64,000 nt of DNA, taken from contig CAKOOO010000001.1 in assembly GCA_934098665.1 (NCBI GenBank), forward strand, positions 106,752 to 170,751. The letters run 5' to 3'. Of this stretch, positions 6,215 to 28,532 are shown piece by piece (the stretch's first letter is position 1; every line of letters begins with the position of its first letter). This DNA is from an uncultured Bacilli bacterium (lineage in GTDB: Bacteria > Bacillota_I > Bacilli_A > RF39 > UBA660). The position numbers and the translations under genes are program-made. The notes below the pieces were generated by a model. It saw only the letters and a list, made by a program, of their open reading frames with translations, was not told the DNA's origin and ran no database searches.

Positions 6215-6218
6215 ACTA

Positions 6219-8204: not shown

Positions 8205-8262
8205 AATAAAAAAATCTATTACGCATTTTTCAATTTTTTTTGATTTTGCGTAATAGAATAAT
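8205..8262. repeat. copy 2 of the about 58-bp hairpin-containing direct repeat
   Basis: Sequence aaaaaaatctattacgcatttttcaattttttttgattttgcgtaatagaataatat. It lies immediately downstream of tsf (minus strand) and looks like the tsf Rho-independent terminator. Confidence 0.8.
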
Positions 8263-8325
8263 ATATTATTTATTATTTTAAAAAATATATATACCCATGT
8301 TTGTTAAAACATGAGTATAAATTAA

Positions 8326-9198: not shown

Positions 9199-9208
9199 TA
9201 TATCCTCC

Positions 9209-10159
9209 TTAGTTTAAAGCATTTATTAATTCTTCTTTTTTCATTGAAGAATAACCTTTAACACCTTTTTCTTTAGCAATTGCTTTTAGTTCTGCAAGTG
9301 TTTTAGAACTTAAATCATCACTTTTTTCTTCTTCGTCTTCAACGATATCATTAATTAGGTAAACATCACTTTCTTTACCTTCTTTAACTTTTTCATCGAT
9401 AACTTCATCTTTAATTAATTCTTCCATTGAAGCATTTTTCTTATTTTTGTCTTCCTCAGTTACATAATCAACTATTTCTAAATTGTTTGCTTCACAAATA
9501 GCGTTTGTAAGTACTCCAAGTAAAACTTTAATACTTCTTACAGCATCATCATTTCCAGGAATAACATAGTCAACTAAATCTGGATCTCCATTAGTGTCAA
9601 CTACACCAAATACTGGAATATGAAGTTTTCTAGCTTCTTTAATTGCATTGTATTCTTTTCTTGGATCTACAATGATTAATGCCTGTGGAAGTTTAGTCAT
9701 TTCTCTAATACCACAAAGAAGTGTATTTAATTTGTCATATTCTTTCTTAATTTTAATAACTTCTTTTTTAGGTAGTGCATCAAATGTTCCATCACTTTCC
9801 ATTTTTTCAATGTCCTCAAGTCTTTTAACTCTTCTTCTAATAGTTCTAAAGTTAGTTAAAGTTCCTCCAAGCCATCTTTCAGTTACATAGTATGAACCAC
9901 TTCTAAGTGCTTCTTCTACAGCAACTTCTCCTGATTGTTTTTTAGTTCCTACAAATAAGAACTTTCCTCCATTACTAGCAATAGTCTTAATTTCTTCATA
10001 AGCCTCCTCTAGTAATTTTTGTGTTTTTTCAAGATCAATAATATAAATATCATCTCTTGAATTAAAAATGTACTCTTTCATTTTAGGATTCCATCTTTTA
10101 GTTTGATGTCCAAAATGAACTCCTGCTTCTAATAAATAACTCATAGAAACAACGGCCAT
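9209..10159 (-). CDS. rpsB: 30S ribosomal protein S2
   Basis: The N-terminus is [19 protein letters not shown]. 316 aa with an acidic C-terminal extension. Confidence 0.95.
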
Positions 10160-10303
10160 AAAATATCCCTCCTTCGTTATTACACCTTAATGCTTCTTCC
10201 TAACATTTCACCCTCTTCGGGCACTCGAAACATTAGTCCACATTAATGTTTATTTGCTTTTAAAGCCAATACTATATTATCAAATATTGTTAATAATTAC
10301 AAG

Positions 10304-10340
10304 TCTAAAAAAATCGCTCTTCACAAAAGCGAAGAACGAT
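10304..10340 (-). terminator. Rho-independent terminator of DGR target paralog A
   Basis: Hairpin cgctcttcac-aaaa-gcgaagaacg followed by a T-run on the minus strand (plus-strand A8 at 10305-10312). A homologous hairpin follows paralog B at 13202-13240. Confidence 0.6.
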
Positions 10341-11411
10341 TTATATTCCTAGTCTATAAGGATTAGTTTTACTTCCTGTTCCTCCAGTTACATACACATT
10401 AGATTTTAGATATAAGACTGGCCTAGCCGCGCGACCATAGGAAGCCGAATTGAAGTACAAATTGCCGACGCTAGTCACGGTAAGAGGAATCGAAGAATTA
10501 TGTGCACTCATAGTCCACTCTAAGCCATTTGAAAATAACCAGTTCTTATTCATATAACTTGCTGGGCTTCCAGCACTTCCTAACACTTCAGTAAATCCTT
10601 CTATTGCGTATCCCCAATCACTTGCATACATCAGTCCTATTTTTGAAGTACTTGTTGTATGAGTTGCTATTTCTTGTGTGTAGTAATTATCTGCTGTTTT
10701 ATATGTACTATCTCCTGCTCCTACATTATAGTATACATCTTCTATCATATTTCCATAATAATCACTTGCATCTATTCCATCTGATGAATAGTTACATAAT
10801 CCTACTGCTGATGTACCTGAATGGCAATAACTATCACAAGATGATGCTTTTCCTAAATAACATGTATTAAGTAAATTTTGAATATTACTTCCCATCCATG
10901 TTGAGTTACTTCCATATTTTATTGCTCCTATAGAATCATTTCTTATTAGTTTTACTCTATTTTGAGTTGTTGCACATCCACTTGTTAAGCATACTGGTAC
11001 GTTACCTATTATTCTCCATAATTCATCATTAAACCATACATAATTATTTGGATCTGTTCCTTGATATCTTTTTCCATGTATTGTAGAAGTACCTTTACTA
11101 TCAACCACATTACTTAAATTACTAGCATTTGAATTAAATGAAATATCACACGTTACTGTTCCCTTTATTTTTGTTATTTCTAGTTTCCATGTTTTAGGGT
11201 TCCATACTCCTTTTCCATGTTCACAATTAACACTTACATTATATTTTCCTTTTGATGGAAAAGATGTTGCATCATTTCCATCTACTTTTAAAGCTATAAT
11301 ACTTCCATTATAATTAAATGTTTTAATGCTTTTACTACTTATAACTATAAGTAAAGTAAAACTTATTATTATAAATATACTACATATTATTATTTTTTTG
11401 TTATATTTCAT
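10341..11411 (-). CDS. secreted surface protein, candidate DGR target (paralog A) with a C-terminal variable region (VR-A about 10425-10497)
   Basis: N-terminal signal anchor. The C-terminal about 250 aa are homologous to those of 13241..14899 (WRIIGNVPVCLTSGCATTQNRVKLIRN etc.). It ends with the VR ...NSASYGRAARPVLYLKSNVYVTGGTGSKTNPYRLGI. VR-A is flanked 3' by the GC-rich motif gcggctaggcc. Confidence 0.6.
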   Translation of the reverse strand: MKYNKKIIICSIFIIISFTLLIVISSKSIKTFNYNGSIIALKVDGNDATSFPSKGKYNVSVNCEHGKGVWNPKTWKLEITKIKGTVTCDISFNSNASNLSNVVDSKGTSTIHGKRYQGTDPNNYVWFNDELWRIIGNVPVCLTSGCATTQNRVKLIRNDSIGAIKYGSNSTWMGSNIQNLLNTCYLGKASSCDSYCHSGTSAVGLCNYSSDGIDASDYYGNMIEDVYYNVGAGDSTYKTADNYYTQEIATHTTSTSKIGLMYASDWGYAIEGFTEVLGSAGSPASYMNKNWLFSNGLEWTMSAHNSSIPLTVTSVGNLYFNSASYGRAARPVLYLKSNVYVTGGTGSKTNPYRLGI

Positions 11412-13240: not shown

Positions 13241-14899
13241 TTATATTCCTAGTGTATAAGGATCAGTTTTACTTCCAGTACCACCAGTTTTATATACATT
13301 AGATTTTAGATATAAGACTGGCCTAGCCGCGTACCCGTAAGAAGCATTGTGGATGTCCAAATAGCCGTCGTAGTAGACGTTAAGAGGGGATGAAGAATTA
13401 TATGCACTCATTGTCCACTCATATCCATTTGAAAATAACCAGTTCTTATTCATATAACTTTCTGGGTTTCCACTTCTTCCGAGTACTTTAGTAAAACCTT
13501 CTATTGCGTATCCCCAGTCACTTGCATACATTAAGCCTATTTTTGAAGTTGCACTTGCATAACTTGCTATTTCTTTTGTATATTGGTCATCTGCATTTAC
13601 ATATGAAGCGCTTGATGGTACTCCTACATTGTAGTATACATCTTCTATCATATTTCCATAATAATCACTTGCATCTATTCCATCTGAAGAATAGTTGCAT
13701 AATCCTACTGCTGATGTAGAATATGAATAACAATAACTATCACATGAGGATACTTTTCCTAAATAACATGTATTTAGTAAATTTTGAATATTACTTCCTA
13801 TCCATGTAAATGGACTGGATGAGCTAAAGGCAGTTTGATTAAATGCTATTGCACCTATTGAATTGTTTCTTATTAGTTTTACTCTATTTTGAGTTGTTGC
13901 ACATCCACTTGTTAGACATACTGGTACGTTTCCGATTATTCTCCATAATTCATCGTTATACCACACATAGTTATCTGGATCTGTTCCTTGATATCTTATT
14001 CCATGTGTTGTACTTGTCCCTTTTGTATCTACTATAGTAGAAAGTAGCTCACTATTTGAGGGTGTTTTTTGAGTAAATGATATATCACAGTTTACAAAAT
14101 CTGACCAATTAGATATAACTAAACCATTTAATTTATTATCCCATACTGCACTATTTGTTCCACTGCAATTTGTTATACTTTTTGTATATCCTGATAAAAG
14201 GTATGCTGGAGTTGCAACATTTACTGTTACATCTTTTTCTGGTGGAAGAGGATCTCCCATTGTACATTTTGCATTAGTAACTCTATATTTACCTTTAAAA
14301 GTTTTATTTGCTAGTGCTGACTGATCTAAATCTAAATTATAAAATCTATTTGTAAAATTCCATGTTTGTTTTTTATCTTTATTTGAGGAAGAGTTTGCTA
14401 TAACTGCACCACTTACTATAGTTGCAGTTGTAGTGGTTAAATTAAAGTTTTTTTCTTCCACATAATTATTTGTTCCTGTATTTGGACCTTTTGCCTCTAA
14501 AGTAAGTTCTTTTGTTGCTCCACTTGTAACAGGCGTAGGACTTTTTCCATAAATACTTGAATCACTATCATAAGTAAATGTAATATCATATGTACAGCTT
14601 ACTGAATATTCTTCACTACCTGATATTAAAGATACTACTAAAGAAGATGTATTTTCCGCTACATAATTATCTCTATTACTTTGACTCATACCTTTAGGGT
14701 CAATTGTTAAAGCAAAATCAGCATTTGTTACATCTAAAATAGAGTTTGCTAAATTTTTTGCAGCTATATTAACATTTGCTTTATTTGAAATATCCACTAA
14801 AAAATTACCAATATATGCAAATGCCACTGATACTACAAGTACAATTAATACTACAGATATTATAATAGTTTTAATATTTTTCTTATCTAATTTTTTCAT
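13241..14899 (-). CDS. secreted protein, candidate DGR target (paralog B): TasA/camelysin-like N-terminal region with a SipW-type signal, fused to the diversified C-terminal domain (VR-B about 13325-13397)
   Basis: The N-terminus MKKLDKKNIKTIIISVVLIVLVVSVAFAYIGNF resembles the SipW-cognate signal. Residues about 30-230 are homologous to 48674..49351 and 55080..55748. The C-terminal about 250 aa are homologous to paralog A. VR is ...SPLNVYYDGYLDIHNASYGYAARP with Tyr codons where the TR has Asn. Confidence 0.6.
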   Translation of the reverse strand: MKKLDKKNIKTIIISVVLIVLVVSVAFAYIGNFLVDISNKANVNIAAKNLANSILDVTNADFALTIDPKGMSQSNRDNYVAENTSSLVVSLISGSEEYSVSCTYDITFTYDSDSSIYGKSPTPVTSGATKELTLEAKGPNTGTNNYVEEKNFNLTTTTATIVSGAVIANSSSNKDKKQTWNFTNRFYNLDLDQSALANKTFKGKYRVTNAKCTMGDPLPPEKDVTVNVATPAYLLSGYTKSITNCSGTNSAVWDNKLNGLVISNWSDFVNCDISFTQKTPSNSELLSTIVDTKGTSTTHGIRYQGTDPDNYVWYNDELWRIIGNVPVCLTSGCATTQNRVKLIRNNSIGAIAFNQTAFSSSSPFTWIGSNIQNLLNTCYLGKVSSCDSYCYSYSTSAVGLCNYSSDGIDASDYYGNMIEDVYYNVGVPSSASYVNADDQYTKEIASYASATSKIGLMYASDWGYAIEGFTKVLGRSGNPESYMNKNWLFSNGYEWTMSAYNSSSPLNVYYDGYLDIHNASYGYAARPVLYLKSNVYKTGGTGSKTDPYTLGI

Positions 14900-15009: not shown

Positions 15010-17550
15010 CTATACTCCTAAAGGAATATTTTTCTTTTTTAAAATATATTTTCTTATTAAATCTACTATAAAAATAGATAATGATAAAATAAATGTAAAT
15101 AATAACTCTTTAAAAGAAAGACCATAAGTTCTAAATAAATCTTTACCATTATAAATAATATATATTTGAACTATAAATATAAAAATATTTATTATTAAAA
15201 ACACTTTATTTTTTAAAATATGAGCAAAAATATTAAGTCTATGAGTACGTGATGTAAATGAGTTACATATACCTAAAAATATAAATAATGCAAAATATGC
15301 TGTAAATAATGTTTTTTCACTAGGAAAAAGATTTTTTATAAAAGGAAGTTTTAAAAACAAAAGACATAATATTCCTGAATAAATACCATTTATAAGAATT
15401 TGATTAAACATATATTTATTCATAACTTTTTCATTTTTAGTTTTTGGTTTTTCCTCTAAAAACTCTTTTAAAGGTGGTTCATAAGAAAATGCAAGACCTG
15501 CAAAAGTATCCATAATCATATTAAGCCAAAGCATTTGAATTATTGTAATTGGTGTTGATATACCAAGAAGTACTCCTACAATAGATAATACAAGTGCACA
15601 TACATTTACAGTAAGCTGATATATAATAAATTTTCTAATACTTTTAAAAATAGTTCTTCCATAAAGCACTGCATTACAAATTGATTTAATATTATCATCT
15701 AAAATAACTATATCACTTGCATCTTTACTTACTTCAGAACCTGATCCAAGAGCAAAACCTACATCACTTTTTTTAAGGGCAAGTGCATCATTTACGCCAT
15801 CACCTGTCATACCAACAACATAATTATAACTTTGTAAAATTGAAACAAGTCTACTTTTATCTTGGGGAAGCGCTCTTGCTATAACTTTTAAATATTTTAT
15901 TTGGCTCATAATTTGTTCATCTGATAAACTAGAAAGTTCATTATGAGTAAGTGCTATAGACCCATTTTTATAAAGACCTAACTCTTTAGCAATATTTATA
16001 GCGGTTTCTTTACTATCACCAGTAATCATAATAACTTTTATACCTGCATTTTCTATTTGTTCTAGACTTTCTTTAGCATCTTTTCTAAGTACATCAGATA
16101 TAATAATTAAGTTAATAAAAGTAAGCTCTTCTTTATTTTTTCCATAAGCATTTACTAAAACTCTATATCCTTTTGAGGTATAACTTTTTATAGTATTTTC
16201 TAATATCATTTTCGATGAAAAAAATTCTTCTTTTCCATTTAAAGTTAAATATTTAGTGCATTTTTTTAAAAGTACTTCACTTGCTCCTTTAAAATAGTAA
16301 AGATCTGATTTTACCATACTATATTTATTTTCTGATGTAAAAAGAACTTTTTCAGTTATAATATCAGTATTATTAAGTGGTCCAATAAACCTTTTAATAG
16401 CTTTATCCGTAATATTACCACCAATAATATCTTTTCCTGAAAATACACTTTCATTATTTAAAAATAAAGATTTAGAAAGTATATTATAATAATCTTTATA
16501 ATGGGTTAATTCCTCTTTTGATTTAAATATTTTTCCATTATTAGAAATAATATATTTTACATTTAACTTACCCATTGTTAATGTACCAGTTTTATCACAT
16601 AGTAAAACATTTAATGAACCACTTGTTTCTATACCTACAAGTTTACGAACAAGTACATTATCCTTTAGCATTTTTTTCATATTCGAAGAAAGTACTAAAG
16701 TAATCATCATAGGAAGGCCTTCGGGTACTGCTACAATGATAATGGTTACAGTTAATGTTAAAACGTAAAAAATATAATTAAGCATCAAAGGAATATTTTT
16801 TAAAGTAAGCACTATTAAATGGATATTAAAATTATTTTTAACAACAATTTGCATAAATAAATATGATAAACTTGCAAGAGATGCACCAATATAACCAAGT
16901 TTACTTATACTTTTTGCAAGAACACGTAATCTTCCCTTCAAAGGGCTTTCACTCTTTTTTTCTTGAACGCCTTTAGAAATATCTCCCATAAAAGTATTAT
17001 CACCAACACTAGTTACTTTTATTTTAGCTTCGCCCTTATATACTGTCGAAGAGCTATAAACAGTTTCATTATAACCTTTGGTAACTTCACGGCTTTCACC
17101 AGTAATAAAGGACTCATCTAAAGTAAGCGTGCCAGAAATAATTTTACCATCTGCCGCAATTTTATCTCCCCCTGATAAACACAAAATATCACCAACAACA
17201 ACATCTTTACTTTGAATACTTATAAGTTTATTATTACGAATTACTTTAGCACTTGTTTTTTGACTTTCTTCGAAAAGTCTTTCAAATGCTTTATTAGAAC
17301 CATATTCACTTATCGAAGATATAAAAGATGCTAAAAAAATTGCAATAACAATTCCAAGTGTTTCATACCAGTCAAAATTTTTAAATAAAAATACAACTTT
17401 TATGGCAAGAGCTATTAAAAGTATTTTAATTATAGGATCAGATAGTGACTCTAATAATATTTTTAAAAATGTATCACCTTTTTTTCTAGTTATTTCATTA
17501 CTACCATATTTTTTACGACTACTTAATACTTCATTATCATTTAGTCCCAA
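15010..17550 (-). CDS. P-type cation-transporting ATPase (Ca2+-ATPase type, P2)
   Basis: The phosphorylation motif is CDKTGTLT, the hinge motif is GMTGDGVNDALALKKSDVGFALG, and there are 10 predicted TM segments. Confidence 0.9.
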   Translation of the reverse strand: MGLNDNEVLSSRKKYGSNEITRKKGDTFLKILLESLSDPIIKILLIALAIKVVFLFKNFDWYETLGIVIAIFLASFISSISEYGSNKAFERLFEESQKTSAKVIRNNKLISIQSKDVVVGDILCLSGGDKIAADGKIISGTLTLDESFITGESREVTKGYNETVYSSSTVYKGEAKIKVTSVGDNTFMGDISKGVQEKKSESPLKGRLRVLAKSISKLGYIGASLASLSYLFMQIVVKNNFNIHLIVLTLKNIPLMLNYIFYVLTLTVTIIIVAVPEGLPMMITLVLSSNMKKMLKDNVLVRKLVGIETSGSLNVLLCDKTGTLTMGKLNVKYIISNNGKIFKSKEELTHYKDYYNILSKSLFLNNESVFSGKDIIGGNITDKAIKRFIGPLNNTDIITEKVLFTSENKYSMVKSDLYYFKGASEVLLKKCTKYLTLNGKEEFFSSKMILENTIKSYTSKGYRVLVNAYGKNKEELTFINLIIISDVLRKDAKESLEQIENAGIKVIMITGDSKETAINIAKELGLYKNGSIALTHNELSSLSDEQIMSQIKYLKVIARALPQDKSRLVSILQSYNYVVGMTGDGVNDALALKKSDVGFALGSGSEVSKDASDIVILDDNIKSICNAVLYGRTIFKSIRKFIIYQLTVNVCALVLSIVGVLLGISTPITIIQMLWLNMIMDTFAGLAFSYEPPLKEFLEEKPKTKNEKVMNKYMFNQILINGIYSGILCLLFLKLPFIKNLFPSEKTLFTAYFALFIFLGICNSFTSRTHRLNIFAHILKNKVFLIINIFIFIVQIYIIYNGKDLFRTYGLSFKELLFTFILSLSIFIVDLIRKYILKKKNIPLGV

Positions 17551-17628: not shown

Positions 17629-18774
17629 CTAATTTATATTTAAATTATTTTCATTTAATTTTTTATTATTATTTTTCATTCTTATAAGTAATAATGTTAT
17701 ACCTATTATTAAAACAATAATAATTACATTTAATGCACATATTAACCATATATTTGGCATATTAGATTTAGAAATATTTATTATATAACTTTGACTTTCA
17801 GTTCCATCAGTTATCTTTATTTCTATTTTGCTATTGTTTTTCAATTTTTCATTTCCAATTATTTCATAAGTTAATTTGTCATTATCATTTTCAATATTAA
17901 TATCTAGTTTATCTTCGTTATTTATTTTTAAAGTATAATTATAGTTATTTCTATAATAATTTAATATATATCCATTTACACTAATATTTTTAAGTGAAAT
18001 ACTTTCTTTACAAATAGACTCTTTTTTTACATTTAAAGTGTATTCTTTTACTTTATTATCTTCAGCTGTAACTTTAATAATAATTTTATTTTCTCCAACT
18101 TTTAAGTTTTCATTTCCGATTATTTCATATGTTGCTTTGGCATCATTTAGCGTTATATCAAGTTTTAATTTATCTACGTTTTCAGTTAATGTTAGATTAT
18201 ATTCTAAAGTATCTTTTTCAAAGTTGAAATCTTTTATTTCTTTTATACTAAATGTTTTAATACTTGCATCACTACTTTTTTGTGGTGTTGTTGTTTGAGG
18301 ATTTGATGGTTGGGGATTTGATGGTTTAGGACTTGGCGTAGGTGTTGGAGTTGGTTCTGGTGTTGGAGTTGGTTCTGGTGTTGGAGTTGTTTCTGGTTTA
18401 TTTGTAACAGTTACTGAAGCACTTCCTGAAACATTTACAGCATTTCCATCATTTGCACTTGTTACATCTCCAGAAAGTGTAAGAGTTATTGTTCCAACTC
18501 CTGTAGATGTACAAGTAACTGGAAATGATTTACTTGTATCAAGTGCATCTAATGTAGCATCAGCTATATCAAGTTTGCAACCACTTACAGGTCCTGAAGA
18601 AGCAACATGTAAATTCCACGCTGCTGCTTCATTCATATTTACATATGCTGTAAAGCTTTCACCTGAATATATGCTACTTGAACTAACTGTTAAACTAGCA
18701 CTTGCAGCATATACATTTAAGCTAACTATTAAAAATGATAATATTCCAGTTAAAATTAATTTTAATTTTTTCAT
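17629..18774 (-). CDS. cell-surface protein with a signal peptide, Ig-like N-domain, Pro/Thr linker, cadherin-like beta-sandwich repeats and a C-terminal TM anchor
   Basis: Linker TTPTPEPTPTPEPTPTPTPSPKPSNPQPSNPQ. Repeats of the type KTFSIKEIKDFNFEKDTLEYNLTL...ATYEIIGNENL. C-terminal TM is IWLICALNVIIIVLIIGITLLLI followed by basic residues. It lies 13 nt downstream of the dockerin protease. Confidence 0.6.
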   Translation of the reverse strand: MKKLKLILTGILSFLIVSLNVYAASASLTVSSSSIYSGESFTAYVNMNEAAAWNLHVASSGPVSGCKLDIADATLDALDTSKSFPVTCTSTGVGTITLTLSGDVTSANDGNAVNVSGSASVTVTNKPETTPTPEPTPTPEPTPTPTPSPKPSNPQPSNPQTTTPQKSSDASIKTFSIKEIKDFNFEKDTLEYNLTLTENVDKLKLDITLNDAKATYEIIGNENLKVGENKIIIKVTAEDNKVKEYTLNVKKESICKESISLKNISVNGYILNYYRNNYNYTLKINNEDKLDINIENDNDKLTYEIIGNEKLKNNSKIEIKITDGTESQSYIINISKSNMPNIWLICALNVIIIVLIIGITLLLIRMKNNNKKLNENNLNIN

Positions 18775-18787
18775 TTTTTTATCCTTT

Positions 18788-21700
18788 CTATCCTATTAAT
18801 TTTGTTCCTATCAAATGTTGTCTTATTCTAAGTAAGTCTGCAGAATTTACTGTGTTATCATAATTTATGTCTGATGCTGTAAAATATATTCCATTAAGTG
18901 GTTTTACCCCAATTAGATGTTGTCTTATTTTAAGTAAATCAGCTGAATTTATTATACCATCGCCAGTAATATCACCAGTAACTACATTTGTAAATTCCTT
19001 AATTAAGCTACCAGAATCATATATTCTTGTTTTAGAACCAGTATAAATTAAATTATTTGATGAATCAACAGTTACACTATAATTATCTCCAAGTCTAATA
19101 TGATTTTTAAAATTACTTTCAGTTGTTCCAACAATTATCTTATTAATTGTATTACTATTTTCATCAACTGAATAATCATTTATTGAATATGTGAAACTTG
19201 ATTTAAATATTGGATATAAAACTAATTCTTTTTCTAAAGTTATTTCATTTCCTATGCTATATTTTTGACCAGTACCATCTACTTTTGTATTCCAAGAGTC
19301 AAAATAATAACCAGCCATTTCAATAGTACAATTTTCAATTTTAATAGTTTGTCCAATTTCATATTCTTTTTCATTTTTGTTTGTACAACTATCATCTAAA
19401 CAATATATAATTTTAACTTTAATTTTTTCCCATTGAGCATATAAGGTTATATCCTCGGTAATGCTTATCAATTGTTCATCTTCATAAGATACACCCGTTC
19501 CATCTGCTTTAGTATTCCAATTTTTAAATATATAATTATCTCTTGTAAATATATTTTTAGATAAATTAGCACTCACATTTTTTATTAGTTCCATATTTGG
19601 CATATTACCAATACCTTGGTTTGGATTAAACGTAATTGTATATTTTTCTTCTTTCCATTGTGCATGTAAGGTTATATTATTTTGTTCATCAAATGGAATA
19701 TTATCAAAAATTATAGAATCACTTGATTTTGCAGAAAATTTTATTCCTGTTCCGTCTTGTTTAGTGTTCCAGTTATCAATATAATAATTTTCTTTTGAGA
19801 AATCTAAATTTCCAAATGAAATAGTTCCTTCACTAGGATAAGTCATAGTCAAATCAACTGTTTTATTATTATTTGATGTCACACCATTTCCATCAAATGT
19901 TATTTTATATTGATTTTCACTCCAAATTGCATATAATTTCAAATCTTCATTTATTCCACTTTCAATTAATTGCTCATCATAATATACTATTCCTGTACCA
20001 TCTGCTTTAGTATTCCATTCTTTAAATGTATGACCTTTATATGTAAATAAGTTTTTAACCAAATTAAACTTTCTATTAATAGCAACATCTTGTGAACTTT
20101 CTTCATTAGATGGATTGTTGCTATTAAATGTAATTGTTTTTGCTTCCATTATTGTAACCTGTATATCATCTTTATAACCATCATACAAACTAGTTATATG
20201 AATTGTCGTTACACCAATTTTCTTTGGAGTAATGACACCCGATGAACTAATAGTTAAATACTCATCATCATATGTCCATTTAATGTTCTTTGCATTATTA
20301 GTATTTGGGAAAATTAAATCATATATATTCTTTGCTTCCGAAATTTTCATTTCAAAATCATCAATTGTTTCAGTGAAGTCAAATTTATCCAGTAATGTTG
20401 TTAATATAGGAAATCTTTTATAACCGTCAATTTCTGGTTGTGTCCATTGTGACTTATGTTCAAAATAATTTGCGTAATTGTTTGCTATTAAATCATCTAA
20501 TGTTACAGCAGTATTATTATTAATCGTTTCAGTACCATTTGATGTAATTTTTCCATATAATTTGTTTTCATTTGTATACCATACACCACTTATATTTACC
20601 GAATTAGTTTGATTAATATAGCCAACAGCTGCACCTAATCTAGTTGCTACTTGTGTTTTATAACTACCAGCACTTATAGCGTTATTTATAGTAAGATTAT
20701 TTACTAAACCACTATCACCAACTATGCCTCCGATAGCACTATCACCAAGTGAGCCATTACCACTCACTTTGCTATAACTTGCTGAGTCACTAATTGTTAC
20801 GTTAAGTTTTTGCCCTTCAGCAACACCAATTATTCCTCCGGCAAAAACTGTATCTATGTTACCAACACTTACATTCGAATACAAATTGTACATATTACAA
20901 TTTACATTTTTAGTAACTGCTTTTGATACATTTATACCTCCTATTAATCCACCATTATAGTATGATGAATTAACTTTACCGCCAATAGCAGATACATTAT
21001 TAATTTCTATTTCATCTGTTATAGATATTGTACCAGCCAATGCACCAGCATCTAAATAACCATTAATATTTACATCTTTTATTATCAAATTTTTTATGTA
21101 ATTATTTTTTCCATAAATATTTCCAAATATTCCAACTGGGTCTTTACCTATATCTTTTGGTCTATTTATGTATACACCACTTATCACATGATTATTTCCA
21201 TTAAAGCTTCCATAAAAATCACTAATTGGTAACCATCCAGCACCAGAATTATAAAATAATCCTTTTGTATTAGTTGTATCATATGATAAATCTAAATCAT
21301 TAGTTAGCACATAATGATTATCTTTTGTATTTAAATTTCTTAATCCATTTAAATCGGATGCAGTTTTAATTTCATAGGGATTTTCTTTCGTTCCAATACC
21401 CAACATTTTATTATTATGTTTCGTTAGTTTCCATTCAATTTTATCATATTTTTCATTATTATAATAAACCTCAACTGTATATGTACCTAATTTCACATTT
21501 TCACTATTATATGATAAAAGTGCGTTAATATAATTAGAAACAGAATAATTTCTAAATACATGAAATAAATTTGTAACATCTTCATTATTTTGATTCAATA
21601 TTTTAAATGTTAAATTATCATTTGATGATAAATTTCTAGAAACTCCTGAAACAACAAATACATTATTATCATCAAAAGTTACTGTATGTGGATCTGAAAT

Positions 21701-23428
21701 ACATTTGTTATCATCTAAAGTACATTTAGTCAAGATTTTTTCACTTGTTGATCTAATATTTGTTAAATCAATAAATTTATCTTCACCAACATTACTTGTA
21801 TGAATAGAGCCGTAATAATCATATTTAATATTATCTCCTTTGAATGTTAATTTAAACTTTTCTGTATTTTCATCTAGAACTATATTGTTTTCTGAAATAT
21901 CAATAGTGTAAAGTCCTGGTTGAGAATATGTTTGAGATTTTAATAATTCATAACTTGAAACATATTCATAATCTGAAACAATTACTTCATTATTTCGATA
22001 ATAAACATATATAGTTTTATTGTATGAATTAACAAAAAATTTAACTTTTTTTAATAATTCTTTTGTATTTCCTTTTGTAAATGTAGTATATTGTCCAGTT
22101 GCTCTATAAGAATTGTCATAATCTACTTCACTTACATTAGTTATACTACTATAAGAACTTTTCATTGTATTATAAGGTAAGTATATAAAAGTATCATTAT
22201 TTCCCCATGAATTTTGTATTATCCATGCCCCATTTATCGTATATAAATCACCTTTAGTACAAGAATAATTATTTCCTACCTTTGTAGCATTAGTTATTTC
22301 AAAATCTGTTTTATTTAAACAAATATTATGTGTATAATTATCATCCCACCCAATTACTGAAACTGCGTGGTTCATTCCTGAACTAGGATTCCATTTATAA
22401 GGTACATAATATATAACATTTTTTCCATCAGTATTTAATGCTTTTTCTGTTCCAGTTGGTATATATTCTACCGATAAATTTGTATAAGCTCCAACAGAAA
22501 CATGTATAGAACCATTATTAACAATTTGCTCTTTTAAAAGATTTACTAAAGCATCGACGTCAGACTGATTATTGGTTGATAGCGGATTAAAAAATAGAAA
22601 TTCATTTAAACTATATTCAGTATTATCTATATTTGTGATTTCAAATGGTGAAAGTTTAGAAGTATAATTATAATCATACTTCCAATATTTATTGCTTTTT
22701 ATATTTTTATCGCTATTGTAATTTGTTCCAGCACTACAATTTCCAGCGCACAAAACTGGAGAAATACCAATTGCTGTTGAATTAGCAAATCTTAGCATAT
22801 TTCCGCCCTCATTTAGGTTGTCACCTATAACTGGACTATTATTATATAAAAATGGGTTACTACCTGCATCAATTGAATTTAAGTCTTTAGTAGTTGCATA
22901 ATCTATTTGTTTTTCAGAAAAAGTTAACATTTTAGTTTTGTTACTTTTTATAGCTAAATGGCTTTCCAAAGAAGTTGCTGAAGAAAAGGCCCAACATAAC
23001 CCCTCAGAACCTTGGTTATAAACATTTGTAATATAACCATCATCTCTTAAATTATAATATGATAATGATGTTTTTTCATTGGAATCACCTTGTTTAGTTA
23101 AAACATCATTTTTATATGAATGTTCTATTATATATATTTCTGGAATATAACCATATTCACTACTCTTACCATTTTTTAAATATTCAACATAATCAGGATT
23201 TAAGTATGGCTCTTCATCTTCCTTATTCTTTTCAGTTAAAATAATTTCACCAGTTTCATTATAAATATCCTCAATATATTTTTTAGCTTCCATAGGAAGA
23301 TAATTATAACTTTCTGATTTTAATACTCTTTCTATTTTATTAGAGCTAAAATGTTTAAATAATATAAAAGTACCTATAACCAAAACCACACTAAAAAATA
23401 AAACGATTTTTTTTACACAACTTCTCAC
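18788..23428 (-). CDS. giant (1546 aa) secreted papain-like (C1) cysteine protease with GLUG/beta-helix region, Listeria-Bacteroides (Flg_new) repeats and a C-terminal type I dockerin
   Basis: The C1 active site is QGSEGLCWAFSSATSLESH. His is in NHAVSVIGWDDN and Asn in IIQNSWGN. GTKENPYEI is followed by Gly-rich GLUG-like repeats (AGALAGT, GGLIGGI, FAGGIIGV). There are four repeats of the type YTITFNPNQG...FKNWNTKADGTGVSY. Dockerin duplicated segments are GDITGDGIINSADLLKIRQHL and SDINYDNTVNSADLLRIRQHL. Confidence 0.8.
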   Translation of the reverse strand: MRSCVKKIVLFFSVVLVIGTFILFKHFSSNKIERVLKSESYNYLPMEAKKYIEDIYNETGEIILTEKNKEDEEPYLNPDYVEYLKNGKSSEYGYIPEIYIIEHSYKNDVLTKQGDSNEKTSLSYYNLRDDGYITNVYNQGSEGLCWAFSSATSLESHLAIKSNKTKMLTFSEKQIDYATTKDLNSIDAGSNPFLYNNSPVIGDNLNEGGNMLRFANSTAIGISPVLCAGNCSAGTNYNSDKNIKSNKYWKYDYNYTSKLSPFEITNIDNTEYSLNEFLFFNPLSTNNQSDVDALVNLLKEQIVNNGSIHVSVGAYTNLSVEYIPTGTEKALNTDGKNVIYYVPYKWNPSSGMNHAVSVIGWDDNYTHNICLNKTDFEITNATKVGNNYSCTKGDLYTINGAWIIQNSWGNNDTFIYLPYNTMKSSYSSITNVSEVDYDNSYRATGQYTTFTKGNTKELLKKVKFFVNSYNKTIYVYYRNNEVIVSDYEYVSSYELLKSQTYSQPGLYTIDISENNIVLDENTEKFKLTFKGDNIKYDYYGSIHTSNVGEDKFIDLTNIRSTSEKILTKCTLDDNKCISDPHTVTFDDNNVFVVSGVSRNLSSNDNLTFKILNQNNEDVTNLFHVFRNYSVSNYINALLSYNSENVKLGTYTVEVYYNNEKYDKIEWKLTKHNNKMLGIGTKENPYEIKTASDLNGLRNLNTKDNHYVLTNDLDLSYDTTNTKGLFYNSGAGWLPISDFYGSFNGNNHVISGVYINRPKDIGKDPVGIFGNIYGKNNYIKNLIIKDVNINGYLDAGALAGTISITDEIEINNVSAIGGKVNSSYYNGGLIGGINVSKAVTKNVNCNMYNLYSNVSVGNIDTVFAGGIIGVAEGQKLNVTISDSASYSKVSGNGSLGDSAIGGIVGDSGLVNNLTINNAISAGSYKTQVATRLGAAVGYINQTNSVNISGVWYTNENKLYGKITSNGTETINNNTAVTLDDLIANNYANYFEHKSQWTQPEIDGYKRFPILTTLLDKFDFTETIDDFEMKISEAKNIYDLIFPNTNNAKNIKWTYDDEYLTISSSGVITPKKIGVTTIHITSLYDGYKDDIQVTIMEAKTITFNSNNPSNEESSQDVAINRKFNLVKNLFTYKGHTFKEWNTKADGTGIVYYDEQLIESGINEDLKLYAIWSENQYKITFDGNGVTSNNNKTVDLTMTYPSEGTISFGNLDFSKENYYIDNWNTKQDGTGIKFSAKSSDSIIFDNIPFDEQNNITLHAQWKEEKYTITFNPNQGIGNMPNMELIKNVSANLSKNIFTRDNYIFKNWNTKADGTGVSYEDEQLISITEDITLYAQWEKIKVKIIYCLDDSCTNKNEKEYEIGQTIKIENCTIEMAGYYFDSWNTKVDGTGQKYSIGNEITLEKELVLYPIFKSSFTYSINDYSVDENSNTINKIIVGTTESNFKNHIRLGDNYSVTVDSSNNLIYTGSKTRIYDSGSLIKEFTNVVTGDITGDGIINSADLLKIRQHLIGVKPLNGIYFTASDINYDNTVNSADLLRIRQHLIGTKLIG

Positions 23429-23524: not shown

Positions 23525-24073
23525 CTATAAACTAACCTTTGCATCCTTTTCATTTTCATCGACTTTAAAATACTCTTCTTCTTTAAAACCATGAATTTTT
23601 GCTACAATAAGTGATGGAAAAGTAATAACCTTTTCATTATATAAAGAAACATTTGCATTATATGCCCTTCGCGAAGCAGATAAATGTTCTTCAGAATCTA
23701 TTATTGCTTTTTGTAAATTTAAAAAGTTTTCATTTGCTTTTATATCAGGATATTTTTCAATAATAATATTTATTTTATTCATTGTTTCATCAAGTGATGA
23801 ATTAATATTTTTAAGTTCATTTAAACTCATATTATTACGAAATTTTATAGCACTTAATAAAACCTCTTTTTCATGTTTTGTATACCCTTTTACAACTTCA
23901 ACAAGATTTGTTATAACATTATATCTTTTAGATAATGCTACATCTATTCCAGATAATGCTTCACTTATTTTAAGTTTATACTTTTTTAAAATATTAAGAG
24001 TTCCAATATAATTTCCTAATATAATTAAAAATATAATTCCTATAACTATTAATAAAATATGTTTTGCTTCCAT
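23525..24073 (-). CDS. lemA: LemA family protein
   Basis: 182 aa with an N-terminal TM and the LemA C-terminal signature AYNANVSLYNEKVITFPSLIVAKIHGFKEEEYF. Confidence 0.8.
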   Translation of the reverse strand: MEAKHILLIVIGIIFLIILGNYIGTLNILKKYKLKISEALSGIDVALSKRYNVITNLVEVVKGYTKHEKEVLLSAIKFRNNMSLNELKNINSSLDETMNKINIIIEKYPDIKANENFLNLQKAIIDSEEHLSASRRAYNANVSLYNEKVITFPSLIVAKIHGFKEEEYFKVDENEKDAKVSL

Positions 24074-24076
24074 TTA

Positions 24077-24982
24077 TTAATCCTCCTTAAATAAATCATT
24101 GTCTAAATCAAGCTGTTCAATAAAATTTATAATTACATCAATATCTTTTTTTATTGTATCTTTAATAATAGTTTCATTAACCTTTTTATGCATACTTGGT
24201 TCAAAAGAATCTAAATAATTATTAAGACCTAAATATAGTTTATTATTATTAAAACATAATATTAACCTGCCATTTATTTTTAAACTTAAATCTTTAATTC
24301 TTTCCATAAATGATGGTGATAAAATATAAAATGCTTCATGTTCATTTTGAGCATAAACTAAAAAGTTTTTATTAAACTCTTCATCCTCTAAAGCAATTTT
24401 TTCATAATTTAAATCATAAAAATTAATAACTGAGGAAGTTTGTGACACACATAAATTTGATTTAAATGCCCTATTAAAATCAAATATAAACCATCTACCC
24501 ATAAATAATGTTACATAATAAGTTTCTTTATTACCATCTTTATCTTCTCTTTCATGTTCTTCCTCAATATGAACATCTGATGATACAAAATTTACATCCT
24601 TGTATTTTCCTTTTATGTAATCGTTAGAATGATATCTGTCTGAGGTATCAATCATTTTAGTATCCATTAAAGTTTCCTCTGAAATGCCTTTTTCTGGTTC
24701 ATATTCTAAATCAGTAAAAATTTCTTTTAAAGCATTGTAAACAAAATAATTTTTATATAGCAAAGTATATTCTCTTACATATTTTTGACCAGGCAACCCA
24801 GCAAAAACTAAACTAAAAATTACTGTAAATGGTAAAACAATATAACAATTAAATGATAATGAAATAATTTGATGTTTACAAAGTATCACAAATAAAATGT
24901 TAAGTATAATTGCAATACTATAGCATATAGTATTACATATTGCATATTTTTTTCTAAGTAAATTTAATCTATCTATTTCCAT
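24077..24982 (-). CDS. hypothetical membrane protein (LemA-adjacent, DUF3137-like position)
   Basis: Two N-terminal TM helices. It lies 3 nt upstream of lemA in the same orientation. Confidence 0.45.
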   Translation of the reverse strand: MEIDRLNLLRKKYAICNTICYSIAIILNILFVILCKHQIISLSFNCYIVLPFTVIFSLVFAGLPGQKYVREYTLLYKNYFVYNALKEIFTDLEYEPEKGISEETLMDTKMIDTSDRYHSNDYIKGKYKDVNFVSSDVHIEEEHEREDKDGNKETYYVTLFMGRWFIFDFNRAFKSNLCVSQTSSVINFYDLNYEKIALEDEEFNKNFLVYAQNEHEAFYILSPSFMERIKDLSLKINGRLILCFNNNKLYLGLNNYLDSFEPSMHKKVNETIIKDTIKKDIDVIINFIEQLDLDNDLFKED

Positions 24983-25166: not shown

Positions 25167-26909
25167 ATGATAGGAACTATTGAACAAATAATTGGAAATG
25201 AAATTGATGTAAAACTTGCACTTGATATTAAAAAAGTACCAAATTTAATTAATTTATATGTTTTAATAAAAGATGCAAATAAATCTTTTATTGGTGAAAT
25301 AACGTCTTTATCTTTAACAGGATGTAAAGTTAATATTTTAGGAAAATTAAATGGTGATAAATTTATTTATGGTTTTGATGAAAAACCCTCTTTTGCAAGT
25401 GTAATATATTTACTTAATTATGATTTTGTAAAAAATATAGTGGGTTTTAGTGGTAATAGTTTACTCATGGGAAAAAGTCCCTATTATGAAAATGTAAATA
25501 TCTTTGCAAATACAAATAATTTATTTGGTTCTCATTTTGCAATATTTGGTTCTTCAGGAAGTGGTAAAAGTTGTGGCTTTACAAGAATTATACAAAATTT
25601 AATGAATCAAAATAATATTAATAGTAATCCTAATATTATTATTTTTGATGCTTATGGTGAGTACGCTAGTGCATTTAATTATTTAAATAATGAACCATCT
25701 TTTGCATATAAAACTTATACAACTGATATAAATAGTAGTAATGAAATTCTTACATTACCTCCATGGCTTTTAAATATTGAGGAATATGCTTTACTACTCG
25801 AAGCAAATGATAAAAGCCAATTAAGTATTTTAGAAAAAACTTTAAGATATGTTAATTTATTTATTAATAATGATGAAAATATTAAAGCATATAAAAATAC
25901 AATTTTAGCAAAAGCACTTCTTGATATATTAATAAGTGGTAAACCTGGTCCTCAAATAAGAGATCAGTTTGTAGGAGTTCTTACAAAAACTAATACCGAA
26001 GAAATTAATCTTGAAAGTCCAATTAATGAACCTGGATATTTTAGAACATTGCGTCAGTGTATGAGAGTTGATGATCATAATAAAATTAACGCTATTGAGC
26101 AAGTTACTGATTTTTTACAAGGATTTATTGGTGATGAAGTTACATTTTCACTACCTGATGGAACACAAATGTTTACACTCGAAGATGTAGCTAATGCTTT
26201 AGAGTTTGCTCTTATTGATGAAGGTATATGGAAAAATGATAGTGTTTATAATAATATGAACATTTTAAAAGTAAGACTTGATAGTATTTTAAATAGTGAT
26301 TATAAAAAATATTTCGAAGTAAATAATTATATAAGTATAGAAACATTTATAAATAATATAGTTCATACAAATGCAAATAAAAAAGCACAAATAATTAATT
26401 TTAATATTAACTATGTTACTGAAAGTTTTGGTAAAGCACTTGTTAAAATATACTCTAAATTAATATTTAATTATGTTGCTTCTTTAAAGGAAAGAGGTTC
26501 TAATCCATTTAATTTAATAATTGAGGAAGCACATAGATATGCAGGTCATGATAATGATTTAAATGTACTTGGATATAATATTTTTGAAAGAATCGCTAAA
26601 GAAGGCAGAAAATATGGGGTACTTTTAGGGCTTATTTCACAAAGACCCTCAGAAATAAGTGAAACAACACTTAGTCAATGTAATAACTTTTTAATTTTTA
26701 AAATGACTCACCCTACTGATATTTCTTACATTAGAAAAGTTGTTCCTTATATAACTGATGATATAATTGAAAAAATGAAATCAATTGTACCTGGTAATGC
26801 TTTATGTTTTGGTTCTGCATTTAAAATGCCCCTTCTTGTAAAGTTTGAATATCCAAATCCTGCTCCAAAAAGTGAAAATGTAAATTTAGATAGTGTTTGG
26901 TTTAAATAA
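25167..26909 (+). CDS. HerA-like/DUF87 ATPase
   Basis: Walker A is FGSSGSGKSC. Walker B region is LIIEEAHRYAG. The C-terminus is ...GRKYGVLLGLISQRPSEISETTLSQCNNFLIFKMTHPTD, typical of HerA/DUF87 helicase-like ATPases. Confidence 0.65.
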   Translation: MIGTIEQIIGNEIDVKLALDIKKVPNLINLYVLIKDANKSFIGEITSLSLTGCKVNILGKLNGDKFIYGFDEKPSFASVIYLLNYDFVKNIVGFSGNSLLMGKSPYYENVNIFANTNNLFGSHFAIFGSSGSGKSCGFTRIIQNLMNQNNINSNPNIIIFDAYGEYASAFNYLNNEPSFAYKTYTTDINSSNEILTLPPWLLNIEEYALLLEANDKSQLSILEKTLRYVNLFINNDENIKAYKNTILAKALLDILISGKPGPQIRDQFVGVLTKTNTEEINLESPINEPGYFRTLRQCMRVDDHNKINAIEQVTDFLQGFIGDEVTFSLPDGTQMFTLEDVANALEFALIDEGIWKNDSVYNNMNILKVRLDSILNSDYKKYFEVNNYISIETFINNIVHTNANKKAQIINFNINYVTESFGKALVKIYSKLIFNYVASLKERGSNPFNLIIEEAHRYAGHDNDLNVLGYNIFERIAKEGRKYGVLLGLISQRPSEISETTLSQCNNFLIFKMTHPTDISYIRKVVPYITDDIIEKMKSIVPGNALCFGSAFKMPLLVKFEYPNPAPKSENVNLDSVWFK

Positions 26910-26935
26910 TTGATATAATATAGATGAGGTGAAAT

Positions 26936-27322
26936 ATGAATTGTTTATTTTGCAGTATTGCACAAAATCAAAATGAAAGAATGACTATTTATGAAGATGA
27001 AAGATTAGTCCTTATTATGGATAAATTTCCTATTTGTGATGGACATGCACTTATTATTCCTAAAAAGCATTTCGAAGATATTTATGAAGTTGATGAAAAA
27101 ACTTTTAATCATATGTTTGAAGTTGCTAAAAATTATGCTAAAGTTTTAATGGATGTAACAAATGAAAAAGGATGCACTTTTTCAATTAACTATGGTGATA
27201 AACAAGAAATAAAACATTTGCACTTACATATCATGCCAAATTATAAGGTTAAACCTTCTAAAAAAGTAAGCGATGTATATAATTTAGTAGTGAGTACTTA
27301 TGAAAAAGAAAAGAAAAATTAA
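26936..27322 (+). CDS. HIT-family nucleotide hydrolase
   Basis: The histidine triad is KHLHLHIMP. The N-terminus CLFCSI is typical of HIT proteins. Confidence 0.8.
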   Translation: MNCLFCSIAQNQNERMTIYEDERLVLIMDKFPICDGHALIIPKKHFEDIYEVDEKTFNHMFEVAKNYAKVLMDVTNEKGCTFSINYGDKQEIKHLHLHIMPNYKVKPSKKVSDVYNLVVSTYEKEKKN

Positions 27323-28532
27323 AAAAAGTATTAAATTTATTTTTACATTTATAATGTTAATTTCAATAACAATTACTTCTTATTTTTTAATAAGCAAAGA
27401 TGATAATAAGTTTAATTTTAATAAAATTGTTAATGAAAATAAAGTTACTTATCCTATTATTAAAAAAATCTCTTTAGTGGCTACCGGTGATGCTCTTTTA
27501 CATAATCCAGTATATTTAAGTGCTTATGATAAAGAAACAGATACTTTTAATTTTGCTCCTCAACTAGAACTTGTTAAGGAACAAATAAAGGATTATGATA
27601 TAAAATACTATAATCAAGAAACAGTTTTTGGTGGTAAACTTACAGATAGATTTAACTGTAAATATAATATGCCGGGTTATTGTTCATATCCATATTTTAA
27701 CACTCCATCAGAGTTTGGTGATGCAATGGTTGATGCTGGATTTAATATGGTATCACTTGCATCAAATCATAGTGCAGACTGCACTTATGCATCAGACACA
27801 TGTTTAACTAATTCCTATAATTTTTGGAAGAATAAAAATGTAGTTTTTGATGGATTTAATGAAGATGAAACAATGGAAAATAAATATAATATTTCTGAAA
27901 AAAATGGAATAAAGTATGGTTTTTTAAATTATACAAATACTTTAAATGGACTTGATAACTCAGTTAGTAATATTAAATATAAAATTGATATTTATGATGA
28001 AGAAACTGCTAAAAAAGAAATTGAAGATTTAAAAACAAAAGTGGATGTAATTATTGTAGCAATGCATTGGCATAAAGCAAGTGCTGAATATGAAACAGTT
28101 CCTACTGCATCTAATAAAGAAATAGCAAATTATCTTGCTTCTCTAGGAGTAAATATTATTTTAGGAACATATTCACACTGTCTTCAACCATTTGACATTA
28201 TTGGAAATACTGTGGTTTTCTATTCACTTGGTAATTTTATTTCTAACCAAGGAGATTTGCTTGATATGATAGGATATAAAGGTATTGTGGGAGTTCTTGC
28301 CTCAATGGATATAACCAAAACTACTTATGAAGATGGTACATCAGAAATTAAAGTAGATAATATTGGTGCAGATCTTACCTATACATATAATAAAAATCAT
28401 AAAGATTATAAAGTTATTCCTTTTAGTAAAATGAATGAAAGTTATAATAAAGATTATAAATCAATTTATGAAGAATATAAAAATGTTCTTACTTCTTTAA
28501 ATCAAAATATTAATGTTAAACCCGTAAATTAA
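27300..28532 (+). CDS. CapA/PGA_cap-family metallophosphatase-like protein (poly-gamma-glutamate capsule synthesis family)
   Basis: N-terminal TM. VATGDALLHNPVY is the CapA N-terminal motif. Also IVAMHWH and ILGTYSH. Confidence 0.7.
   Translation: MKKKRKIKKSIKFIFTFIMLISITITSYFLISKDDNKFNFNKIVNENKVTYPIIKKISLVATGDALLHNPVYLSAYDKETDTFNFAPQLELVKEQIKDYDIKYYNQETVFGGKLTDRFNCKYNMPGYCSYPYFNTPSEFGDAMVDAGFNMVSLASNHSADCTYASDTCLTNSYNFWKNKNVVFDGFNEDETMENKYNISEKNGIKYGFLNYTNTLNGLDNSVSNIKYKIDIYDEETAKKEIEDLKTKVDVIIVAMHWHKASAEYETVPTASNKEIANYLASLGVNIILGTYSHCLQPFDIIGNTVVFYSLGNFISNQGDLLDMIGYKGIVGVLASMDITKTTYEDGTSEIKVDNIGADLTYTYNKNHKDYKVIPFSKMNESYNKDYKSIYEEYKNVLTSLNQNINVKPVN

Follow-up and report, generated by a model that had tools for sequence, protein, structure and literature searches.

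A dockerin-tailed papain-family protease and its adjoining membrane anchor as a candidate plug-and-socket cassette of an uncultured gut Bacilli bacterium

The window, a stretch of 64 kb from the genome of an uncultured Bacilli bacterium (contig CAKOOO010000001.1), encodes on its minus strand a papain-family cysteine protease of 1546 amino acids (aa) with a C-terminal dockerin (open reading frame (ORF) 18788-23428, GTG start) and, 13 nt downstream, a 381-aa membrane-anchored protein (ORF 17629-18774), and these two genes probably make up a plug-and-socket operon by which the large protease is displayed on the cell surface. The host is best read as one of the uncultured low-GC gut "Mollicutes-like" Bacilli, with a GC content of the window of about 25% and abundant housekeeping genes. 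The two genes are assigned to one operon because their short spacer carries a ribosome-binding site (RBS) and no terminator was found between them, nor any other on the minus strand, while the promoter scan was uninformative in DNA of 25% GC (60 sites vs 56 expected). From the dockerin on a protease, the original prediction had concluded that there are a cohesin-bearing partner and an assembly on the cell surface; both a partner and such an assembly are indeed well supported, the likely partner being the product of the adjoining gene, which had not been flagged, but the N-terminal domain of this partner, designated NA, is not a recognisable cohesin. The binding of the dockerin to NA is suggested by the adjacency of the two and by their co-variation across related loci.

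In the proposed mechanism, the first gene would give a zymogen similar to Cwp84 of Clostridioides difficile, comprising a signal or transmembrane (TM) segment, an inhibitory propeptide and a C1 core packed on a lectin-like beta-sandwich. Its long non-catalytic arm, made up of a beta-sandwich, the beta-helix, an immunoglobulin-like (Ig) domain and the four Flg_new repeats, is probably used for binding to substrates or to target surfaces. The second gene would give a stalk that is anchored in the membrane by its TM helix and carries two Cadherin-like domains, a Pro/Thr linker and, at the distal end, NA. After the export, the propeptide is presumed to be removed autocatalytically, which would at the same time detach the enzyme from the membrane segment at its N-terminus, and the calcium-dependent binding of the dockerin to NA would hold the active protease at the tip of the stalk. 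The substrates, as a guess, may be host or dietary proteins used as nutrients and/or the own surface proteins of the cell, matured as is done by Cwp84.

Co-variation of the dockerin with the neighbouring N-domain

The gene following the protease was recorded in each related locus, and all ORFs of these loci were then searched with local hidden Markov models (HMMs). The N-terminal domains of the anchors belong to three classes, namely, NA (the type of the window), NB (Pfam Big_2) and NC (Pfam Cohesin), hereafter classes A, B and C, while the remaining architecture is mostly shared by the anchors of all three, with Cadherin-like domains in 24 of the 29 protease neighbours and in 87 of the 108 members of the NA family. 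In 43 of the 54 distinct dockerin-bearing ORFs, the next gene within -60 to +150 nt begins with NA, NB or NC, and nearly all strong matches to the three domains sit directly after a dockerin-bearing ORF. The class of the neighbour follows the helix motif of the dockerin without exception: '[SDNG][AGDL]DLL' stands beside NA (15/15), 'DY[VI]' beside NB (16/16), and neither motif beside NC (12/12).

The pairwise similarities of the dockerins and of the neighbouring N-domains were correlated (Spearman 0.55; partial r 0.546 when the protease core was controlled for), with none of 2000 Mantel permutations reaching the observed value (0 of 1000-2000 across both analyses), and the coupling of the neighbour and the dockerin to the protease core was weak (rho 0.13). 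With a larger locus set and linkage controls, rho between dockerin and N-domain was 0.49 in all loci, 0.55 in classes A and B together, 0.83 in class A and 0.71 in class B, which was the strongest coupling in every subset, as compared with 0.28 between the pre-dockerin segment and the N-domain, 0.22 between the dockerin and its own upstream segment, and 0.11 between the dockerin and the rest of the anchor.

The anchor is missing beside the relatives that have no dockerin, such as P0017 (C-terminal ChW), where the next gene is subtilisin-like, P0008 (fn3), where it encodes an unrelated protein, and L017, which has its own C-terminal TM helix and no gene in the corresponding position. One protease with no dockerin in the precomputed annotation, P0023, does carry a dockerin of the 'DY[VI]' type and has an NB neighbour. 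The pairing is also independent of the cargo, as NA anchors selected from an exhaustive profile search follow other 'DLL' dockerins borne by an S8 subtilisin with leucine-rich repeats (L091) and by a Cadherin-like repeat protein (L089). These loci span L091:2828-9004 and L089:367-5092, and the anchor of L091 ends in Fib_succ_major and not in a TM helix.

In four loci from metagenome-assembled genomes (MAGs) of Saccharibacteria (L031, positions 5998-11317; L036; L038; L039), three consecutive overlapping genes encode a protease with a dockerin, a secreted 275-aa protein composed of NB and a dockerin of its own, and a 350-aa protein with NB, a Pro/Thr linker, a Cadherin-like domain and a TM helix. 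By analogy with cellulosomes, this chain has the logic of an adaptor and an anchoring scaffoldin, here in an epibiotic lineage of the candidate phyla radiation. Besides, a class A cassette (L005, NA with 'DLL') and a class B cassette (L015, NB with 'DY[VI]'), the proteases of which are 28% identical, were found in the same MAG, GCA_964430785, that suggests the coexistence of orthogonal pairs in one cell.

Two further loci differ in arrangement. The locus L051:1-12609 holds four tandem paralogous genes for proteins of about 1200-1300 aa, the dockerins of which belong to another type (…NDLRLEYNHI…); no anchor gene lies within the locus, and the four may form a multi-enzyme system whose receptor is encoded elsewhere. 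In the 1.46-Mb 'Bacilli bacterium' chromosome CP091726.1 (L020, 8895-11090), the protease gene appears to be split into several ORFs by a frameshift or an assembly error, and the dockerin-coding end still adjoins the gene of an NA anchor, P0122, which is cut to 163 aa.

The NA domain and the alternative readings

The NC domain of L043 is matched by Pfam Cohesin with 28.9 bits against the cut-off of 24.1 and that of L049 weakly, and the NC profile weakly matches the PDB cohesins 2xdh and NagJ 2w1n; by these profile matches, the N-domains of class C are genuine cohesins in the same anchor architecture. NA and NB thus occupy the place of a known dockerin receptor, because the class C anchors carry cohesins there. 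The NB domains are matched by Pfam Big_2 (PF02368) in 8 of 10 cases, nearly end to end, two of these matches (28.3 and 26.5 bits) being above the cut-off of 22.8, and NA is homologous to NB (hhalign 98% with the signal peptides, and 92% with E 6e-7 without them). NA itself has no Pfam match: Pfam Cohesin (PF00963) gave none on NA alone at E<=10 and does not appear in the list of Pfam matches (E<=0.01) of the 29 neighbours, and neither Cohesin nor any other Pfam family lies over the NA domain in the 108 family members at E<=0.1. An earlier hhalign match of 93% to class C, along with Fab matches in the PDB profile searches, was discarded as a signal-peptide artefact.

The sequence relations favour the reading of NA as a divergent Ig domain of the Big_2 type, which is the most likely one and in which NA stands in the place of the cohesin, while the fold evidence is non-discriminating. 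In the Foldseek search with the model of the whole 381-aa anchor, generic beta-sandwiches were retrieved, with cohesins at ranks 13, 38 and 49 (2xdh with E 4e-4 and TMt 0.53; 3l8q; 6kgd_A; TMt 0.44-0.53), as well as CARDB, MG and Ig domains. It can be proposed only tentatively, at somewhat less than even chances, that the dockerins of classes A and B bind this Big_2-type Ig domain, i.e., a second receptor fold structurally unrelated to the cohesin. If this is true, proteases and other cargos are mounted on the surface by three or more plug-and-socket pairs of orthogonal specificity (NA, NB and cohesin), and both the reduced-genome gut bacteria and the epibiotic Saccharibacteria use such modular two- or three-gene cassettes.

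Several points weigh against the display of the protease through the dockerin and NA. By its profile relations, NA does not have the features of a recognisable cohesin, and no earlier case in which a Big_2-type domain is bound by a dockerin is known to us. The adjacency is not universal, since 11 of the 54 dockerin-bearing ORFs have no anchor neighbour (their dockerins carry neither the 'DLL' nor the 'DY[VI]' motif). The dockerin, encoded by the 3' end of the first gene, adjoins NA, encoded by the 5' end of the second one, on the DNA, so that joint recombination could give a part of the co-variation; it is unlikely to be the whole cause, because the coupling to the flanking domains is weaker. 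The locus counts are also inflated because of the phylogenetic non-independence of the loci, and the window covers only 64 kb of the genome, that leaves room for a canonical cohesin encoded elsewhere.

In the most probable alternative, which we consider unlikely, the pair is an ordinary cohesin-dockerin one and NA is a cryptic, shortened jelly-roll cohesin; the mechanism would be the same and the receptor fold would not be new. This is consistent with the cohesins among the Foldseek matches of the anchor model, with the real cohesins borne by the class C anchors of the same architecture, and with the cohesins documented by structure only in gut ruminococci, which may evade sequence detection, including Pfam, and yet keep the nine-strand jelly-roll (PMC13463774). 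It is opposed by the homology of NA to the Big_2-matching NB and by the hhalign comparisons of NA or NB with the class C cohesins, in which no relationship is left once the signal peptides are removed. Furthermore, NA has about 100 aa and 8 predicted strands, as compared with about 140 aa and nine strands of the cohesin, and single CARDB and Ig-like domains reach TM-scores equal to or above those of the cohesins.

Less probable still is the binding of the dockerin to a cohesin protein encoded elsewhere, with the neighbour being a co-expressed adhesin or stalk that makes no direct contact. In cellulosome producers, the genes of cohesin and dockerin partners are often unlinked, and NA is not a known dockerin receptor. 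However, such a reading leaves unexplained the perfect partition of dockerin types by neighbour class, the co-variation exceeding that of the flanks, the loss of the neighbour in the dockerin-less relatives, the identical pairing with unrelated cargos, and the adaptor chain of Saccharibacteria; the window holds neither a cohesin nor a second dockerin. It fits poorly with the co-variation, its controls and the cargo independence, as does the very improbable reading of the neighbour as a substrate of the protease in an enzyme-substrate operon, i.e., a surface precursor matured as SlpA is by the closest solved relative Cwp84 (PMC4089489), to which the exposed Pro/Thr linker would be suited, for it is the dockerin and not the catalytic core with which the neighbour co-varies, a subtilisin and a dockerin protein that is no enzyme are followed by the same type of anchor, and the dockerin-less protease relatives have no such neighbour.

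Anatomy of the protease and the anchor

The domain composition of both proteins is given in Table 1. The papain-family core, the four Flg_new repeats, the C-terminal type I dockerin with two calcium-binding segments and the N-terminal TM segment or signal anchor had all been foreseen by the original prediction, and each of them was borne out. Peptidase_C1 (PF00112) is matched with 32.8 bits (cut-off 20.7), though the aligned residues are 126-175 only; the domain is considered to be complete despite this short alignment because the papain fold of the AlphaFold2 model matches Cwp84 and procathepsins. The model covers residues 1-1200 and was built from a 69-sequence alignment, with the mean predicted local distance difference test (pLDDT) of 88.8 and the predicted template modelling score of 0.75; in the region 123-440, the pLDDT is about 90, and Foldseek gives the probability of 1.00 to Cwp84 and cathepsins with TMt up to 0.74. 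The motifs QGSEGLCWAFS (139-149), HAVSVIGWD (354-362) and NSWG (406-409) are present; Gln139, Cys145, Trp146 and His354 are invariant in the alignments of 12 and 69 sequences, and Asn406-Ser-Trp-Gly is invariant in the former and conserved in at least 90% of the latter, so the catalytic triad expected by the original prediction is conserved, with the orienting Asn406 nearly invariant, together with Gln139 of the oxyanion hole. Thus, the assignment to family C1 rests on the profile, the catalytic residues and the modelled two-lobe fold, and the proteolytic activity is a predicted one.

Table 1. Features of the protease gene, the spacer and the anchor gene in the window
Feature	Coordinates	Strand	Basis
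Signal peptide or signal anchor of the protease (basic n-region and hydrophobic helix), residues 1-28	23345..23428	-	GTG start; AlphaFold2 helix 12-28
Helical pro-region, residues ~29-122	23063..23344	-	AlphaFold2 helices 31-85; alignments
Papain-family (C1A) catalytic domain, residues ~123-440	22109..23062	-	Pfam, catalytic residues, fold match
Two beta-sandwich domains, residues ~441-672	21413..22108	-	AlphaFold2 strands 447-560 and 589-668, pLDDT >90
Beta-helix-type domain from GTKENPY, residues ~673-1000	20429..21412	-	AlphaFold2 strand ladder, pLDDT 90-97
Connector and small Ig-like beta domain, residues ~1001-1095	20144..20428	-	AlphaFold2 strands 1025-1094
Four Flg_new (Listeria-Bacteroides) repeats, residues ~1096-1410	19199..20143	-	Pfam Flg_new; TIGR02543
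Small conserved pre-dockerin module in X-module-like position, residues ~1411-1480	18989..19198	-	Family consensus
Type I dockerin of class 'DLL', residues 1481-1546, and stop	18788..18988	-	Pfam; PDB dockerins; helix motif
Intergenic spacer of 13 nt with RBS AAAGGA	18775..18787	-	Sequence; terminator scan
Anchor signal peptide (…NVYA/AS), residues 1-23	18706..18774	-	Sequence; AlphaFold2
NA, 8-strand beta domain and proposed dockerin receptor, residues 24-126	18397..18705	-	AlphaFold2 pLDDT 95-98
Pro/Thr-rich disordered linker, residues 127-170	18265..18396	-	Sequence; pLDDT <55
Two Cadherin-like beta-sandwich domains (stalk), residues ~171-335	17770..18264	-	Pfam 36.4 bits; AlphaFold2
TM helix, basic tail and stop, residues 342-381	17629..17751	-	AlphaFold2 helix 342-373; sequence

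The start codon of the protease is preceded by RBS-like and TATAAT-like sequences (GGAAGTAGG), and M1 is conserved across the homologues. The pro-region is the most conserved stretch of the family, with invariant Y41, L44, Y56, Y75-L-N-P78 and P96; the proforms of procathepsins and Cwp84 align with the protease over about 400-600 columns in the structure search, and the residues 20-115 of Cwp84 align to the positions 81-170 of the family profile. The first of the two beta-sandwiches, which are matched by no Pfam family, is the counterpart of Cwp84's 'lectin-like' domain by both structure and profile alignment.

For the following Gly-rich segment, the original prediction had proposed the GLUG type, and this label failed in every profile test: PF07581 was absent on the whole protease at E<=0.1, on residues 675-1000 alone at E<=10, in the precomputed Pfam lists of 120 homologues and in the 3n6z segment. 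It was replaced by a beta-helix homologous to 3n6z (BACOVA_03286, a fragment from Bacteroides ovatus named 'putative IgA1 protease'), which has repeated G-G-[LI]-[IV]-G-like turns; 3n6z was retrieved for the residues ~673-1000 at Foldseek rank 5 with TMt 0.66 and by the family profile (3n6z_A, E 2.1e-20 over about 280 residues). The two share the G-T-x-x-x-P-Y start and the G-G-I-x-G turns, whereas 3n6z is a stand-alone fragment from structural genomics.

In the region of the Ig-like domain, the residues G1072, S1080 and Y1082-D-G1084 are conserved among 12 sequences. Flg_new (PF09479) is found in four stretches (100.1 bits, E 7.7e-29), each with the core W-N-T-K-x-D-G-T-G, and the same region is matched by TIGR02543 with 37 bits in the NCBIfam scan. 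The pre-dockerin module is matched by no Pfam family, and a comparable module stands ahead of the dockerin in the adaptor protein of Saccharibacteria. Dockerin_1 (PF00404) covers residues 1485-1539 with 41.2-45 bits (cut-off 22.9). The dockerin consists of two near-identical segments, DITGDGIINSADLLKIRQHLIG and DINYDNTVNSADLLRIRQHLIG, in which a duplicated 12-residue calcium-binding loop is followed by a helix (DITGDGIINSAD-LLKIRQHL and DINYDNTVNSAD-LLRIRQHL); the position 3 of the loop 1 is Thr here and Asn in the close relatives. By sequence, the protease retrieved from PDB the dockerins 6kg9, 2ccl and 1ohz and the cathepsins K/S/L, and the family profile retrieved the same dockerins, 3ul4 and the cathepsins K/S/L at 1e-8 to 1e-12.

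The protease family counts 152 matches among the scored candidates. Its members closest to the window protease come from MAGs of uncultured gut bacteria that bear the names Mycoplasma, Mollicutes, Tenericutes or Bacilli, with the identity of 92% in L006 (MGYG-HGUT-04242), 86% in L005 and 84% in L008, while the full-length relatives at 25-28% identity belong to MAGs of Candidatus Saccharibacteria and Nanosyncoccus. The organism names given to some MAG contigs (Acidaminococcus, Roseburia, Muribaculaceae and Methanobrevibacter 'cleanbin') seem to reflect noise of binning or labelling, and no taxonomic claim rests on them. A dockerin was detected by the local HMM in 96 of the 120 family members listed, and the C-terminus appears to be a swappable retention module, because the members without a dockerin end in S-layer homology (SLH), ChW or fn3/Big_2 domains or in a TM helix.

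The anchor was modelled by AlphaFold2 from 108 homologues with the pLDDT of 81.9, NA being predicted with very high confidence over residues 25-124. The word-indexed searches with the short NA domain (4 matches) and with the class C profile (2 matches) gave too few homologues and were not used; the NA homologues were taken from an exhaustive HMMER search instead, with 498 clusters at 50% identity, 209 of them at E<=1e-10. NA is single-copy and lies at the extreme N-terminus (residues ~1-125) in all 150 matches listed.

Relation to known systems and other genes of the window

The closest solved relative of the protease is Cwp84, the structure 4ci7 being the top Foldseek match (E 3e-12, about 610 columns) with an alignment that spans the propeptide, the C1 domain and the 'lectin-like' domain, followed by procathepsins and mature cathepsins in PDB; the family profile also matches 4ci7_A with E 3.9e-21, the match being in two parts and taking in the lectin-like domain. 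Cwp84 has 803 residues, matures SlpA, is held on the cell wall by three PF04122 repeats and is implicated in the degradation of fibronectin, laminin and vitronectin (PMC4089489). Both proteins (PDB 4ci7/4d59 for Cwp84) have a signal peptide, a propeptide, a cathepsin-L-like C1 core, a lectin-like beta-sandwich and a surface retention module. In contrast to the 803 aa and three CWB2 repeats of Cwp84, the window protease is twice as long, additionally comprises the beta-helix, the Ig domain and four Flg_new repeats, and is retained by a dockerin; PF04122 (CWB2) had no match in it, its C-terminus being composed of the four Flg_new repeats and the dockerin.

The assembly had also been compared by the original prediction with cellulosomes and with the toxin complexes of Clostridium perfringens, and neither comparison held for the genes of the window. 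With cellulosomes, the pair of the window has in common a C-terminal duplicated calcium-binding dockerin on the enzyme and a distal receptor anchored to the cell on a Pro/Thr linker, and the related cassettes have type-specific pairs, the hierarchy of adaptor and anchor (Saccharibacteria loci) and real cohesins (class C). However, it is a cassette of one enzyme and one single-receptor anchor side by side, with a protease as cargo and no carbohydrate-active enzymes or carbohydrate-binding modules (CBMs), anchored by a TM helix rather than by SLH or sortase, and with a receptor that is Big_2-like and not detectably a cohesin. A multi-cohesin scaffoldin with many dockerin-bearing carbohydrate-active enzymes is characteristic of the cellulosome, while no glycoside hydrolase (GH), CBM or cohesin was found among the window ORFs scanned, and nothing in the results points to cellulose degradation.

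In C. perfringens toxin complexes, canonical cohesins join glycoside hydrolases to one another through FIVAR-dockerin modules. Non-cellulosomal dockerin-type modules on secreted enzymes are the common feature with the window, but the partner here is a membrane anchor, and the analogy was dropped because no GH, FIVAR or cohesin module was present in the Pfam scan of the window genes; the closest enzyme relative is the S-layer-associated Cwp84.

Dockerins on putative peptidases are shared with Ruminococcus flavefaciens FD-1, where 16 peptidase modules occur among 222 dockerin proteins (PMC2930009). The latter are parts of one large cellulosome with several scaffoldins, most of them being of the transglutaminase-like or metallopeptidase kinds, whereas the window presents a stand-alone cassette with a Cwp84-like C1 protease. 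A 'Serine protease' fragment of about 150 aa (PDB 8x39 / 8x3a) is matched by the family profile through the dockerin only (E ~1e-11), so that a dockerin-bearing protease has a precedent among the solved structures.

No earlier description of the protease/anchor cassette was found in the library of papers that was searched. Dockerin-bearing peptidases and Cwp84-like proteases are already known, so the enzyme itself is of known kinds; new are the tightly linked cassette of a single enzyme and a single anchor, spread in the genome-reduced gut Bacilli and Saccharibacteria, and the family of non-cohesin-looking putative receptors that is covered by no Pfam model. Dockerins are common outside cellulosomes, but few of these have a known partner, for want of an identifiable cohesin, and the locus and its relatives give a testable partner for one large group of dockerins, namely, the product of the next gene, which can be a Big_2-like domain of about 100 aa. 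If the binding is true, it would give a new receptor class, orthogonal pairs for synthetic scaffolding, and an explanation of how very large surface proteases are held on the uncultured genome-reduced gut Bacilli and Saccharibacteria, with a bearing on the feeding of these probably auxotrophic organisms and on their interaction with the host or partner cells. Cwp84, to which the protease is divergently related, has itself been studied as a factor in the colonisation by C. difficile. A dockerin-domain protein is reported to be essential in a cultured Saccharibacterium (PMC10633639), which is a lead and not a demonstrated link.

Among the other genes of the window, a pair of LemA (PF04011) and DUF3137 genes (23525-24982, minus strand) lies immediately upstream of the protease and is not conserved beside it in the relatives, L001 and L002 having response-regulator/HD-GYP genes in this place. 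An ORF of 846 aa that starts with TTG (15010-17550, minus strand) lies shortly downstream of the anchor gene and contains the phosphorylation motif DKTGTLT of P-type ATPases in its translation. Two sizeable ORFs of 552 and 356 aa (13241-14899 and 10341-11411, both minus strand) have no Pfam family at E<=0.001. The product of the gene at 36411-38537 (minus strand), 708 aa in length, has a prepilin-type methylation motif (PF07963) at its N-terminus as its sole Pfam domain and is putatively a pilin or pseudopilin-like protein of unusual size. The region 25167-28532 lies on the plus strand, while most of the window is encoded on the other one, and consists of a HerA/DUF87-type ATPase gene followed by a small ORF and a PGA_cap gene (poly-gamma-glutamate capsule synthesis-like).

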